Of a stretch of 64,000 bases of DNA, positions 42,693 through 47,391 are shown in pieces; the stretch's first letter is position 1, and every line of letters begins with the position of its first letter. A program made the position numbers and the translations under genes. Source of the stretch: Gemmatimonadota bacterium (GTDB taxonomy: Bacteria > Gemmatimonadota > Gemmatimonadetes > Palauibacterales > Palauibacteraceae); contig JBDHAC010000011.1 of the NCBI GenBank assembly GCA_039588275.1, positions 1 to 64,000 on the forward strand, in the 5' to 3' direction. The notes under the pieces are model-generated. The model did not search any database, was not told where the DNA came from, and worked only from the letters and a program-made list of their open reading frames with translations.

Positions 42693-43751
42693 ATGAGCCG
42701 TCGTTCCGGTTTCTGGGGCTCTCCATTCCTGCGCCTCACCGGCTACTACATCGTCGCCGCGGGGCTCCTGTACGGCGTCGCCATGGTGTTCCCGGTCATC
42801 CTCGATTCCTTCTCTGGTGGGCGTCTGAGCGACCTGGCCCAGCGAGGCTTTCTTGGTGGAGGGGACCCGGTCGGCGTGAGCGAGGGGTCGATGCGTGGGC
42901 CGGTGGAATCGATCCTGTTCGCGACGCTGGCCATGATCGGGAGCATGGTCCTGCTCGCGCCCGTGGTATGGGTATACATGATCACCCGCCAGCGGGAGGG
43001 TTACGACGAGTCAGTCGTCCACACGGTCATCATCCTGCCGATCGCGGTCACTGCGCTCGTGATCGTGGTGCAGGACAGCGTGGCGCTCGCCTTCAGCCTG
43101 GCCGGGATCGTCGCCGCGGTCCGCTTCCGGAACACCCTGAAGGACACCAAGGACGCGGTGTACATTTTCCTGGCGATCGGGACCGCTCTCGCGGCCGGGG
43201 TCCAGGCGCTCGGGATCGCTGCGGTGGCGACGGTGCTGTTCAATTACCTCGTGCTGTTCATGTGGAGGTTCCAGATCGGGAACATCTACGCGGATCAGCT
43301 CGGGCGGGCGCCCAAGATGCGGCTGGGTGACGTGCTGGCCGGTGCGGGGCGCACGCCCGGGGCCGGATCCGGCAACCTCACGATCGGCGATCCCAACGCG
43401 CTCGCGGCCCTGACGCCGGACAGCCTCACCGAGATCGTCGAGCGCAGACAGCGCTTGCGGGAGCAGATCGCCGGCGGGGGCAAGGTCGCGAAGAAGTACA
43501 ACGGGCTGCTGGTCGTGCTCTCCCCGGATACCGAGGAATGCATCGAGGCGATCGAGGAGGTGCTGGAAGAGGGCACGAAGCAATTCCAGCTCGCCGAAAG
43601 CACGGCTACGCCGGAAGGAGAGTGGACGCTCGAGTTTCTCATCGGCCTGCCGAAGAACGCCTCCGGGCAGGACCTGATCGGCACCCTTCGCCAGCGAGTC
43701 GGCCAATGCATCGTCGCGGCCGAGTTCCGCAACCTGAAGCTCGAGAAGTAG
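42693..43751 (+). CDS. DUF4956 family membrane protein
   Basis: ALAFSLAGIVAAVRFRNTLKDTKDAVYIFLAIG..LAAG; C-terminal ACT-like soluble domain. Confidence 0.82.
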   Translation: MSRRSGFWGSPFLRLTGYYIVAAGLLYGVAMVFPVILDSFSGGRLSDLAQRGFLGGGDPVGVSEGSMRGPVESILFATLAMIGSMVLLAPVVWVYMITRQREGYDESVVHTVIILPIAVTALVIVVQDSVALAFSLAGIVAAVRFRNTLKDTKDAVYIFLAIGTALAAGVQALGIAAVATVLFNYLVLFMWRFQIGNIYADQLGRAPKMRLGDVLAGAGRTPGAGSGNLTIGDPNALAALTPDSLTEIVERRQRLREQIAGGGKVAKKYNGLLVVLSPDTEECIEAIEEVLEEGTKQFQLAESTATPEGEWTLEFLIGLPKNASGQDLIGTLRQRVGQCIVAAEFRNLKLEK

Positions 43752-44707
43752 TGCCGCGTACGCCCCGGATTCCGCCGCTACTACGCCCCGTCCTGTTCGT
43801 GGCCGCGCTGCTGGCGTGTCGACCCGATCCCGCCATCGAGGCACAGGAGCGCCAAGCCCAGCAGCCTGAGGCGCCAGCGAACGAACTGCAGGAGAGTCCG
43901 ACGGTGCTACCGGACTACGGCCTGTCGGCAGAGCCTGACGTGCAATGGAGGCTCCCCGGGCGACTGCGTGAGATCTCCGGGCTGGCGGTTACGGCGGATG
44001 ACCGGATCTTCGCGCACGATGACGAGCGCGGAGTCATCTACGAGATCGATGCCGCCGAGGGGCGGCTCGTCAAGGCATTCGCTCTGGGCGACATCACCGC
44101 GGCGGACGACTTCGAGGGCATCGCCGTGGTCGGGGACAGGTTCTACCTCGTGTCGAGCAGCGGTCGCCTGTACGAGAGCTTTGAGGGTGAGGACGGCGAG
44201 CGCATGCTGTTCAACACCTACGGCACGGGCGTCGGGCGGCGGTGCGAGGTGGAGGGTCTCGCGTTCGAGCCGGCGGACCGGACGCTGCTGCTCCTGTGCA
44301 AGGCGCCCCGGGACCCGGAGCTAGGGGAATCCGTAGACGTTTACCGCTGGTCCGTAGACGAGCGCGCCATGGCGAGCGATTCGTTGATCAGGATCTCCCG
44401 CGCGGCGCTCACCGAGGGCCTATCGGGGAGCCGATTCTCTCCCTCCGGCATCGAGCGCCACCCGGAGACGGGACACTACTTCATCGTGGCCGCCCGTGAG
44501 GCGGCGATCGCGGTGGTCGACGCCGCCGGGGGAGTCCTCTCGGTGGAGGCGTTCCCCGAAGGCGCCCACCGCCAGGCCGAAGGAATCAGCTTCACCTCGG
44601 ACGGCTCGCTGCTCATCGCTGACGAGGGAGGCGCGGGGCGCGCCCGGCTGAGCCGATACGAGCGACCTCCACCCGAAGGGCCGGGAGACGCGGAGGACGA
44701 CGCCTAG
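43751..44707 (+). CDS. SdiA-regulated (YjiK-like) beta-propeller lipoprotein
   Basis: LREISGL, H.DE.G.IY, DFEGIA, EVEGL, FSPSGI..HP, QAEGI.F...G.L.IADEG; lipobox LLAC; GTG overlaps the upstream TAG. Confidence 0.8.
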   Translation: MPRTPRIPPLLRPVLFVAALLACRPDPAIEAQERQAQQPEAPANELQESPTVLPDYGLSAEPDVQWRLPGRLREISGLAVTADDRIFAHDDERGVIYEIDAAEGRLVKAFALGDITAADDFEGIAVVGDRFYLVSSSGRLYESFEGEDGERMLFNTYGTGVGRRCEVEGLAFEPADRTLLLLCKAPRDPELGESVDVYRWSVDERAMASDSLIRISRAALTEGLSGSRFSPSGIERHPETGHYFIVAAREAAIAVVDAAGGVLSVEAFPEGAHRQAEGISFTSDGSLLIADEGGAGRARLSRYERPPPEGPGDAEDDA

Positions 44708-47391
44708 AAGGCCATCCCGGCCCGGAGGTAGACCCCCGTCAGATCATCGCCGTTCACGATCCCGAGGCTCAGCGTCTGCAGTCGGTTCATGAACGAGAGC
44801 CACAGCCCACCCCCAAAGCCGGTGTGCCAGGTGTCGGCATCCTCGGGGTCCCCGTCGAAGAACACGCGCCCCGCGTCCGCCGCGCCGAACAGACCCAGCT
44901 GGGTCGGGACGAGCATGTTGAAGGTGGCGACCGGGAGCCGGAGCTCGGCGTTCCCGTACAGCGAGGCATCCCCCGCGAATCGGCTGGTCCTGAAGCCACG
45001 CACCGAGCGTCCACCGCCCAGGTACGCGGCTTCGTGGTAGGGGAAGGTCCCGAAGACCTTCTGGCCGCCGACACGCAACGCGAGCGTCGGCTCGACGGAG
45101 ATCGGAGCGGTCAGATAGGCGCTTGCGGACCCGTGGATCTCGCCGAAGGTGGATTCGACATCCAGGATCGAGGGATAGATCGCGCCGGCCGCCTCGAGCA
45201 GCACACCCCGCTTCGCGTAGCCCGTGTTGTCACGCGTGTCGATCGCGAACCATGCCTGCGCGCCGATCTCGCTGAAATTCCCGAAACCGTAGGGGGGCGG
45301 GTCCAGGCTCCCGATGAAGCGATCCGCGTTGTCATCGGCTGGTGCGCTCGAGTGCTTGAGGACCGGTCCAAAGCCGATCTTGAAGGTCGGTCGCAGTGGG
45401 TCGGTCCCCGCAGCAGGGTCGCCTCCCCGGTCCTCACCCATGTGCCACTCCAGGCCGAGGCCCACCTCGAGCTCGCGGTGCTGCACCTTGAAGAACCGGC
45501 TGGCTTCGGTGGCCAGGGTCTCGTTCCCGAACCCGTAGAAGCGGAGCTTGTTGATCCCGGTGTATTCGACGTGGATCAAGCCGTCGACGTGCGACCACAT
45601 GTTGCGGAAGCGGGCGTCGTACCCGAGGAGTATCTCCGGTCCGACGGTGGCGAGCCCCGCGCTGAACAGGTGGTACGTCTTGAATGGCACCTTCCGGAAT
45701 CCGTATCGCTCCACCCCCCGGCGCAACCCGAACCACAGACCGAGGTCCGGGCTGTAACCGAAGATCGGGAATCCGACCACGTTTCCGCCCCAATCCAGCG
45801 CGTACCGATGCGCAAGGTCCTTGGAAGGCGGGCGTTCGAACGGGCGCTCATCGACGCGGGCGCCGCGACCCGCCTCGAACACGTTGTCGCCCCTATCGTC
45901 GTGGAAGTGGACTTTTCCGGCCGGGGCACGCGATTCGTTGACGAAGTGGTCATCGCCGCCGCCTCCGATCACCCGCACCGTGATCCGGGCTCGGTCACCC
46001 GAGATCTCGGCCCGGTCGTCGCCTCCCCGTAGATACAGGCGTATCTGCCGTGTGACGTCGGGGTCGAACGTGCGGCGGAACCAGGGCGGCTCACGCACCC
46101 CCTCACCCTCGCCGAGCAGTCCGATGTGGACCCGCAGCTCACCGGTCGGCAGGTGCTCGATCTCGGCGTACTCGTCCCGATCCGTCGCGTAGATGTCCGC
46201 CCAGCGAGTGATGGTGCGGTGGAATTTCCGCGCGGCTTCGCCCAGTTCGTCGCGGCGCTGCTTGAGCGCGTTCTCGATGCGCGCTCCGACGAGGGCGAAG
46301 TGCTCCGGAGGGAGCCGACGGACGGCTTCTTCGATCACCGGGTCCGTCAGGTCTCGCCGGATCTCGAAGACGACCGAATCCCACACCGGCCATTCCAGCT
46401 CCACGAGGACCTCTCGATCGAGCTCCCACCCGTTGAAGGTGAGCCCACCGATGTGGGGGTAGTCGGCCTCGAACTTCGTCTGCTGCGGGCGCGTCCGCCG
46501 GTACACCCACATGATGAACCCGTCGTAGTCCACGAACGCCTGATCGCGGTCTTCGGGGATCGGTATCCAGATGCGGCAATCGCCGCGCTGTTCCTCACCC
46601 CACCTCCACTGGCCCGCGTGCCGGTCGCGATCTCCGATGACCATGTCCATCAGCCGCGCCTTGAGGTATGCGCGCGCGTCGGGGCGGTCGCACGGACCCT
46701 CTTCGATCGCATCCCGGAAGTTGTCCGTGCCGCTGATGCGGCGAAAACCGCCCCAGCCGGGCGTGTTGTCCGGCCCCTCCTCCGGCCGCTCCACCAGCAT
46801 CCCGATCAGTCCGGCGTACTCCTCGCGATACTCCCCCAGACGCGGGTCGTCCGGGACGACGACGAGCTGGTGCGTGGGGTAGAGGATGCCGGTAGCCTCC
46901 ATGAGGGGATCCACGATCAGGCCCGCCGTCGGGAGGAGCGCGCTGATCTGATCCTGGATGATGTCCTCGACGAAGGTGCCCTTGAGTTCGGGAAGCAAGC
47001 GCTTCGTGGGGTCCTTGTCCATCGAGCGGACGGCGTACTCCAGCCCGTCTCGGCCGACGAACTCGAGCGTGACGGACTGGCCAAACCCGCCGGTGTCTAT
47101 CGGGGTGAGCCCGCCGCCGACCGCATCGAGGTCCAGAACCGGTACCTCGATCTGCCTGATCCACACATCGCGGTAGTCATCGCCATGCAGCCAGCGACCG
47201 AACGCGCCGGCCCGGTAGCGCTCGCCGGGCACGACCGTGTGCGTCGTCGCCCCGGGTGGAGGTGGTGACTTGACGATCTGTGCGGCCAGCGTCGTCCCGG
47301 AACACGCGAAGAGCGCCGATGCGACGAATCCGATACGAGGTGCTCGGATCCGGGCTGTGCCACGGCGTGCCCGGAGGATGCGGAACTCCAT
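44704..47391 (-). CDS. Omp85/BamA-TamA-type outer-membrane protein with N-terminal atypical kinase-like domain
   Basis: Signal peptide; GGFGQS, IGDRDRHAGQW, IPEDRDQAF; GGDD/GGGGDD/RGDN repeats; barrel with VRGF, ELRLP, G.GGG.W and terminal Phe. Confidence 0.82.
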   Translation of the reverse strand: MEFRILRARRGTARIRAPRIGFVASALFACSGTTLAAQIVKSPPPPGATTHTVVPGERYRAGAFGRWLHGDDYRDVWIRQIEVPVLDLDAVGGGLTPIDTGGFGQSVTLEFVGRDGLEYAVRSMDKDPTKRLLPELKGTFVEDIIQDQISALLPTAGLIVDPLMEATGILYPTHQLVVVPDDPRLGEYREEYAGLIGMLVERPEEGPDNTPGWGGFRRISGTDNFRDAIEEGPCDRPDARAYLKARLMDMVIGDRDRHAGQWRWGEEQRGDCRIWIPIPEDRDQAFVDYDGFIMWVYRRTRPQQTKFEADYPHIGGLTFNGWELDREVLVELEWPVWDSVVFEIRRDLTDPVIEEAVRRLPPEHFALVGARIENALKQRRDELGEAARKFHRTITRWADIYATDRDEYAEIEHLPTGELRVHIGLLGEGEGVREPPWFRRTFDPDVTRQIRLYLRGGDDRAEISGDRARITVRVIGGGGDDHFVNESRAPAGKVHFHDDRGDNVFEAGRGARVDERPFERPPSKDLAHRYALDWGGNVVGFPIFGYSPDLGLWFGLRRGVERYGFRKVPFKTYHLFSAGLATVGPEILLGYDARFRNMWSHVDGLIHVEYTGINKLRFYGFGNETLATEASRFFKVQHRELEVGLGLEWHMGEDRGGDPAAGTDPLRPTFKIGFGPVLKHSSAPADDNADRFIGSLDPPPYGFGNFSEIGAQAWFAIDTRDNTGYAKRGVLLEAAGAIYPSILDVESTFGEIHGSASAYLTAPISVEPTLALRVGGQKVFGTFPYHEAAYLGGGRSVRGFRTSRFAGDASLYGNAELRLPVATFNMLVPTQLGLFGAADAGRVFFDGDPEDADTWHTGFGGGLWLSFMNRLQTLSLGIVNGDDLTGVYLRAGMAF

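Follow-up and report, generated by a model that had tools for sequence, protein, structure and literature searches.

What a kinase-like domain might do when it is joined to an outer-membrane barrel is the question raised by one gene in the 64,000-nt stretch of Gemmatimonadota DNA analysed here (positions 1–64,000 of contig JBDHAC010000011.1, assembly GCA_039588275.1; hereafter the window). The gene lies on the minus strand (nt 44704–47391), is present as a single copy within its assembly, and consists of an ORF open for 895 codons, the 895-aa product of which, P0001, combines an atypical kinase-like domain with an Omp85-type barrel. An initial annotation, made from the sequence, had read the protein in this way, and that reading is supported by the modelled fold, a Pfam Omp85 match and structural matches, all within one ORF. 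P0001 is quite likely an active phosphotransferase facing the periplasm, and its two convergent neighbours, a DUF4956 membrane protein and a beta-propeller, neither of them mentioned in the initial annotation, are the main clue to its function.

The kinase-like domain and its barrel

An AlphaFold2 model of all 895 aa (121 homologs) reached a mean pLDDT of 86.4 and a pTM of 0.84. Behind a probable Sec signal peptide (about residues 1–37, nt 47281–47391, minus strand like every feature of this gene), recognizable by a basic n-region, a hydrophobic stretch and the sequence LAA-Q, lies an alpha/beta domain of about residues 40–396 (nt 46204–47274) with a pLDDT of 93.4 when folded alone. Against 48,161 chains, this domain matched PI4KIIalpha (Z 14.4, rmsd 4.8, 255 residues aligned), CotH (Z 14.3, rmsd 4.2, 247 aligned) and CtkA (Z 13.4, rmsd 4.3, 216 aligned), followed by PI4KIIIbeta (Z 11.6), HipA (Z 11.5) and Fam20 (Z 10.9). 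The best structural matches are atypical kinases without exception, and Foldseek returned the same families. In the model, residues 40–396 have a bilobed, atypical kinase fold of the PI3/4K-HipA-CotH-Fam20 type, the feature on which the initial annotation had staked its reading. Since the top matches are tied, the fold does not discriminate between a lipid and a protein substrate.

While P0001 shares its fold (Z 14.4 to 10.9) and a DRH-type loop with PI4KIIalpha/PI3K, CtkA, HipA/HipT and Fam20, identity in the structural alignments is 9–16%, and P0001 falls outside their Pfam families. Neither P0001 nor the domain profile gave a significant match in sequence searches of the PDB, and Pfam and NCBIfam provide no name for the N-terminal domain. 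Pfam CotH (PF08757) exceeds its cut-off in neither P0001 nor any of 67 family members; HipA_2 appears in one of these 67 at E 0.061, and PF07804, PF20613 and PF00454 stay below cut-off throughout. In the Atlas, the named clusters nearest to the domain are CotH and HipA, at a similarity of only 0.76.

The motifs pointed out in the initial annotation are all present: a Gly-rich loop, GGFGQS (residues 101–106, nt 47074–47091), a DRDRH segment (254–258, nt 46618–46632) followed by AGQW, which includes Q261, then IPEDRD (278–283, nt 46543–46560) and, in the barrel, VRGF (797–800) and a final Phe. Where an N-lobe strand ends, two basic residues, R122 and K126 (nt 47014–47028), are candidates for phosphate binding. 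Among the 121 aligned homologs, D249, D254, D256, R257, H258, Q261, D281, R282 and D283 are invariant (121/121). A larger set of 474 non-redundant rows, left from 650 after removal of rows with <90% of the core or >90% identity, retains R122 in 466, K126 in 465, D249 in 466, D254 in 464, D256 in 463, H258 in 435, Q or N at 261 in 465, D281 in 460, R282 in 459 and D283 in 462. The Gly-rich loop is kept less strictly, with G101 in 427, G102 in 454 and Q105 in 432 of these rows, and G104 varies family-wide (131/474). Loss of the DRH and D residues in homologs would have refuted the initial annotation; instead, these residues are conserved.

Conservation counts are biased for loci L001–L079 and L209–L288, which were fetched by patterns containing these motifs. 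In the groups free of this bias, 284 database proteins (top-scoring matches) and 74 phylum loci, D256 is found in 284/284 and 69/74, D281 in 279/284 (4 gaps) and 65/74, R122 in 284/284 and 67/74, and K126 in 284/284 and 65/74, respectively. That the motifs exceed chance is confirmed by their invariance in 121/121 homologs, the domain pLDDT of 93.4 and the exclusively atypical-kinase best matches. DRHxxN is the catalytic-loop motif of PI3K-type kinases; judged by motif spacing rather than by residue-level superposition, the loop D254–H258 and the candidate metal-binding residue D281 may be the equivalents of that loop and of the metal-binding Asp.

The kinase-like domain is followed by a linker domain (residues 397–514, nt 45850–46203) in which DSSP assigns strands only. 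The Asp/Gly-rich repeats expected from the initial annotation do occur here, as GGDD at 456 and GGGGDD at 476, although they amount to two or three loose units within a beta-rich domain. The Omp85 barrel itself (residues 536–895, nt 44707–45786) has 16 strands across residues 536–891 of the model, and matches BamA (Z 23.7) and TamA (Z 23.5). Omp85 (PF01103; 29.7 bits, cut-off 24) is the sole Pfam match of P0001, and NCBIfam NF047779 scores 88.7 bits, below its cut-off of 200. A loop-6 motif of the (V/L)RG(F/Y) type, like VRGF, is present in 226/239 homologs, and 224/239 end in F, Y or W. No POTRA domain was detected in P0001, either by Pfam or in the model, where residues 397–514 are only strands, and OM_YaeT scores 16.4 bits against a cut-off of 297; an insertase of the BamA/TamA type was rejected for lack of POTRA. 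A truncated gene was likewise rejected: a signal peptide is present, and all of the homologs listed (120/120) are shorter than 950 aa. By a simple heuristic rule applied to N-termini, signal peptides were called in 167/185 full-length short-form homologs, compared with 76/925 internal control windows.

Which side of the outer membrane the kinase-like domain faces can be approached from three directions. When the barrels are superposed, model residues 133–139 and 521–528 align, by range ends, to the part of BamA that lies N-terminal of the barrel, the former in structure-match rows 11, 16, 20 and 40; as this is the periplasmic POTRA region of BamA, the model places linker and kinase in the periplasm. 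Family members of 466–486 aa that have no barrel carry either an N-terminal hydrophobic anchor (P0186, P0190, P0195–P0198, P0200, P0205, P0208, P0209, P0212, P0213 and P0215) or a lipoprotein-like Cys (P0192 and P0237). In the patatin-Omp85 protein PlpD, the enzyme domain is described as periplasmic, and an earlier surface-display idea as overturned (PMC11116518); PlpD resembles P0001 in that an Omp85 barrel anchors a periplasmic enzyme, but the enzyme is another one, and PlpD forms dimers and includes a POTRA domain. The kinase-like domain thus probably faces the periplasm, which narrows the initial proposal of periplasm or surface: the former is favoured and the latter disfavoured.

Relatives of P0001

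P0001 is a phosphatase-less relative of the 'Metallo' Omp85 subfamily defined by Heinz and Lithgow in 2014 (PMC4104836). In the main text of that paper the group is called metalloproteases and the word kinase does not occur, and later papers keep the name (PMC11116518, PMC11358297). The name was rejected here, as PF00149 is a phosphoesterase family. Data Sheet 3 of the 2014 paper reports a match to 3akj, the CtkA kinase (99.6–99.8), at 62 places, and puts it between phosphatase and barrel; among 59 of these 62 rows, 17 have no phosphatase match, and 15 of the 17 are labelled 'truncated protein'. Data Sheet 2 includes one member with Pfam CotH. Gemmatimonas is absent from the tables of the paper, which left the topology open. 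The kinase-Omp85 fusion was therefore recorded in a 2014 supplement, undiscussed there, and P0001 does not represent a novel type of protein. Literature searches (subscription papers being outside their scope) found no paper text describing an Omp85-barrel kinase.

Homology between P0001 and the subfamily extends over the whole length of CtkA-like kinase domain, beta-rich domain and barrel, and P0001 is 30% identical to a Fulvitalea 'metallophosphoesterase' (WP_338395284). P0001 differs in having no N-terminal PF00149, and Pfam finds no metallophosphoesterase domain anywhere in it, as the initial annotation had noted; the published cluster also holds members without PF00149. The 'truncated' label contrasts with the short form represented by P0001: this form carries a signal peptide and is, among close homologs, the usual one. 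Metallophosphoesterase-Omp85 proteins, cited in the initial annotation as precedent, do exist, and the relationship is closer than the analogy intended, since the same kinase domain lies between their phosphatase and barrel.

Three architectures are found: kinase-barrel, as in P0001; metallophosphoesterase-kinase-barrel, as in P0362 (PF00149 plus Omp85), the Fulvitalea protein and about 49 of the 80 metagenome loci described below, a count by proxy (kinase domain starting after residue 300); and the barrel-less, anchored kinases mentioned above. A search for forms of 1568–4475 aa scored none, as weak evidence against them. Of 8,000 candidates, 2,067 scored as homologs of P0001, and a domain profile search returned 3,526 clusters at 50% identity. 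Named close relatives come from Gemmatimonadota (up to 87%), Latescibacterota, Acidobacteriota, Poribacteria and KSB1 assemblies, more distant ones from Bacteroidota; culturable environmental carriers of a phosphatase-fused homolog include Fulvitalea and Hymenobacter. The distribution is patchy, the kinase domain being present in 70/201 genomes of the phylum and in 0/11 other genomes of the same family. Several loci have tandem or nearby duplicate kinase-barrel genes (L040, L050, L067, L078, L172, L175). In 23 close loci forming one cluster, a patatin-Omp85 gene lies immediately 5' of the kinase-barrel gene (L011:7137–9383 and other Latescibacterota), and in Acidobacteriota (L057:5810–10780 and others) the operon goes on to a free metallophosphoesterase and to a protein of about 1300 aa with a TamB domain.

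Other bacterial kinases bear comparison. The SEAE1 family (bioRxiv 10.64898/2026.09.18.752743), compared by description only, has a PI3K-like fold, occurs mostly in Bacteroidota and, like P0001, has its two catalytic Asp residues 25 residues apart; it is described as intracellular, with no mention of a barrel, and its Lys-to-Asp spacing is 76, compared with 134 from R122 in P0001. The P0001 family could be among the unnamed families HOMD1, 2, 3 and 5 of the KINtaro list (PMC10870513) or the 17 families given without detail in the 2026 oral-microbiome preprint.

Gene neighbourhoods and polyphosphate

The DUF4956 gene (nt 42693–43751, plus strand; PF16316) encodes a 352-aa inner-membrane protein with four hydrophobic segments, and no second copy was found in the assembly. 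Next to it, the SdiA-regulated/phytase-like beta-propeller (nt 43751–44707, plus strand; PF06977, PF13449) is a probable lipoprotein (LLAC) with invariant acidic residues. The propeller gene probably begins at a GTG codon overlapping the stop of DUF4956 (the ORF as listed starts upstream, at 43538), and the coupled pair points toward the kinase-barrel gene, the stops of propeller and kinase-barrel genes sharing a single CTAG (nt 44704–44707). A promoter and terminator scan found no terminator-like site there, with no more hits than in shuffles. Further neighbours in the window are peptidases and transporters. Complex prediction for P0001 residues 40–535 with the propeller scored 0.00, and bears on neither side of the argument.

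Three locus sets were compared: set A (close; of 289 genome matches the best 80 were taken, giving 79 loci), set B (phylum; 80 of 102 places from a phylum search) and set C (metagenome; of 549 matches to an alignment led by Bacteroidota, the best 80). Many of these loci are cut by contig ends, and the Bacteroidota contexts come from metagenome contigs and five annotated plasmid regions. DUF4956 lies beside the kinase gene in 72/79 loci of set A, 32/80 of set B and 0/80 of set C, the propeller in 62/79, 22/80 and 35/80, and PPK1 in 5/79, 17/80 and 11/80, respectively. In set A, 61 of 73 DUF4956 ORFs are on the same strand as the kinase gene. Nearly all propeller-positive genomes have the kinase (29/30, versus 70/201 genomes overall). 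Among set B loci, 36/80 have a free metallophosphoesterase and 14/80 an NTT-like transporter, the latter never together with DUF4956 or PPK1. In a tree of 128 rows, 12 of 13 NTT-flanked leaves fall together, and PPK1-flanked leaves are scattered across sets B and C. The PPK1 of set B mostly carries an N-terminal CYTH-like extension, giving proteins of about 1100 aa (L137:10460–13735, L118:5822–9121), and often overlaps the end of the kinase-barrel gene. An HD-PycTM membrane protein adjoins the kinase-barrel gene in 44/80 loci of set C, 3/80 of set B and 0/79 of set A, and an adenylate/guanylate cyclase in 15/80 of set C; the two often occur together, in loci where DUF4956 was not found (e.g. 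L219:5686–6897).

Co-occurrence was also counted from the DUF4956 side, in 201 genomes of the phylum with 96 strong DUF4956 places (11 weak places were counted separately, and 3 DUF4956 and 6 kinase fragment rows dropped). Within 8 kb of these 96 places there is a P0001-type kinase in 37, a CotH-like family in 33, both in none and neither in 26. Every genome with strong DUF4956 (77/77) has a P0001-type kinase or the CotH-like protein, compared with 30/124 of the remaining genomes. The CotH-like family was met at 18 DUF4956 loci of genomes lacking a P0001-type kinase, at 13 of which an exported protein of about 340 aa (alignment A6) lies alongside. This family looks CotH-like, as a lead from sequence: Pfam CotH appears in one of eight members at E 0.017, below cut-off, and Atlas similarity is 0.97 to a cluster with 17% CotH. 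Compared by profile with the P0001 kinase domain, A6 gave no significant result (probability 0.2%, E 0.27), and in that comparison the catalytic-loop and downstream Asp motifs of both families fell into register. The A6 proteins have invariant Cys residues, occur in 59/201 phylum genomes and frequently adjoin DUF4956 (L293:7949–8965, L295:7923–8954).

A gene set of CotH, polyphosphate polymerase (VTC) and DUF4956 has been published for Gram-positive loci (10.1101/768473), and CotH is reported as a proven ATP-dependent protein kinase acting on spore-coat proteins (PMC7821199). Two of the weak DUF4956 copies adjoin true CotH genes, with a VTC gene confirmed at one (L311). P0001 resembles CotH (PF08757; 5jda) in fold (Z 14.3), and kinases of its type likewise pair with DUF4956 and a polyphosphate-synthesis gene; it differs in having a barrel anchor and no Pfam CotH match. 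P0001-type loci have PPK1, often CYTH-extended, instead of VTC. P0001 has an adjacent DUF4956 but no adjacent CotH or VTC-domain gene, and neither was found in its assembly (85.8% complete); its gene set may work like the published one without being a member.

Among 20 further DUF4956 loci fetched, 7 of them chosen for long frames, DUF4956 is fused to PPK1 in six, as Pfam confirmed in 3/3 checked. DUF4956 would in this way tie the P0001-type kinase to polyphosphate. The fusions (L312–L316, L318) are about 930–970 aa long, one ORF being longer through an upstream start, and are flanked by CHAD-like and His-phosphatase genes.

The same genome holds a second candidate exported-kinase module on contig C83 (L290:1730–8640). 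It starts with a 1063-aa NTT/TLC-like transporter that carries HEAT and cNMP domains, followed by a response regulator, a histidine-kinase-like ORF, a 332-aa kinase-like protein and a metallophosphoesterase. The 332-aa protein has a signal-like N-terminus, PI4K-like motifs and a weak Pfam ABC1 match (E 0.022). No sequence link between it and P0001 was detected, and a profile comparison with the kinase domain gave no match.

Proposed role and alternatives

In the preferred reading, P0001 would be exported, and its barrel, inserted in the outer membrane, would hold the atypical kinase domain, in active form, toward the periplasm; the protein would act as phosphotransferase within a phosphate module of the envelope. 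DUF4956, in the inner membrane, and PPK1 would together provide the periplasm with polyphosphate or ATP as a high-energy phosphoryl donor; at other loci, ATP might arrive through NTT-like carriers. The kinase would then phosphorylate an acceptor in the envelope, most likely a protein of the periplasm or outer membrane and otherwise a lipid or glycan, and a fused or neighbouring metallophosphoesterase, perhaps also the acidic propeller, could take the phosphate off again. Taken whole, with the DUF4956/PPK1 supply included, this scheme is tentative, and we lean slightly against every part of it being right. Its strictest form is improbable: a trans-envelope relay in which DUF4956 and PPK1, as coupled or fused proteins, synthesise polyphosphate and export it into the periplasm, interchangeable Omp85-anchored or CotH-like kinases use polyphosphate itself as donor on envelope proteins, and a fused or adjacent phosphatase reverses the modification.

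Several observations weigh against the scheme. Fold, conserved residues, architecture and neighbours are observed, whereas kinase activity is putative, and so is the conduction of polyphosphate or ATP by DUF4956; no enzyme with a kinase fold is known to use polyphosphate. DUF4956 is missing from every one of the 80 metagenome (Bacteroidota-type) loci and from 21/70 kinase-positive genomes, 26/96 DUF4956 places lack both kinases within 8 kb, and 21/80 loci of set B are without any phosphate-themed neighbour. In the window, none of PPK1, VTC, NTT or metallophosphoesterase lies beside P0001; the ppk1 of this genome is on another contig, and VTC was not found in its 85.8% complete assembly. Because the genomes are related, the profiles were made from kinase neighbours and the NTT leaves cluster, the counts do not represent independent events. 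The superposition that places the kinase in the periplasm is modest evidence, as it uses range ends only, on a predicted model. Finally, one subgroup of kinase-barrel homologs (L186, L188–L193, L197) has degraded catalytic or ATP-site motifs and possibly consists of pseudokinases; several of them have in common another, conserved neighbourhood.

Phosphatases accompany the kinase more constantly than any other partner (fused in about 49/80 metagenome loci, free in 36/80 phylum loci) and could instead indicate scavenging or recycling, with polyphosphate or phosphorylated compounds entering via the barrel and the kinase fold serving as a hydrolase or reverse phosphotransferase. The phytase-like Pfam match of the propeller and the CHAD and His-phosphatase genes beside DUF4956-PPK1 fusions would fit, but the candidate kinase residues are all kept, both basic N-lobe residues included, and DUF4956 is alternatively paired with a CotH-like protein, CotH being a kinase by published report (PMC7821199); we regard this explanation as rather unlikely. 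The domain might also bind nucleotide and perform other chemistry, such as AMP transfer, or act as a non-catalytic sensor or scaffold gating the barrel. P0001 has Q for the usual N at 261, R122 for the usual Lys and no DFG-like motif, and degenerate members persist with intact barrels. AMPylation or glutamylation can be catalysed by kinase-like folds (PMC10870513). However, the best fold matches are true kinases, CotH is likewise reported without DFG (PMC12189002), and the degenerate members are a small minority (D256 in 463/474 rows), all of which makes this explanation doubtful.

A barrel that exports the kinase to the surface in autotransporter-like fashion, for use of extracellular ATP on external or host substrates, would be supported by the Gly/Asp beta-rich domain, which resembles secreted beta-roll domains, and by the presence of CtkA, a secreted kinase, among the top fold matches. 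The topology, left open in PMC4104836, would also permit it. We nevertheless hold surface display to be quite improbable, since the model has the kinase domain on the periplasmic side, anchored barrel-less members occur, the commonest partner in close loci (DUF4956) is an inner-membrane protein, and the same idea was overturned for PlpD (PMC11116518). Least probable is a part in a nucleotide second-messenger or anti-phage system. Bacteroidota-type loci do contain HD-PycTM proteins (44/80), which match PADLOC PycTM models, and cyclases (15/80), and the gene is patchy (0/11 other genomes of its own family). Against this, PADLOC gives no match for P0001, DUF4956, the propeller or P0362, HD-PycTM is found in only 3/80 phylum and 0/79 close loci, and the genes nearby in the window encode peptidases and transporters.

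As ATP is generally considered absent from the periplasm, an exported kinase that is widespread and keeps its catalytic residues prompts the question of where its donor comes from. For P0001 and its relatives, the neighbours offer two candidate sources, DUF4956 with PPK1 or NTT-like nucleotide transporters. If the relay were true, it would mean reversible phosphorylation in a compartment thought to be without ATP, and an enzyme of kinase fold whose donor is not a nucleotide. The 'Metallo' Omp85 subfamily may meanwhile be re-read as one in which the kinase is the constant enzyme domain and the phosphatase is optional, and the short members, P0001 among them, look like whole exported proteins.

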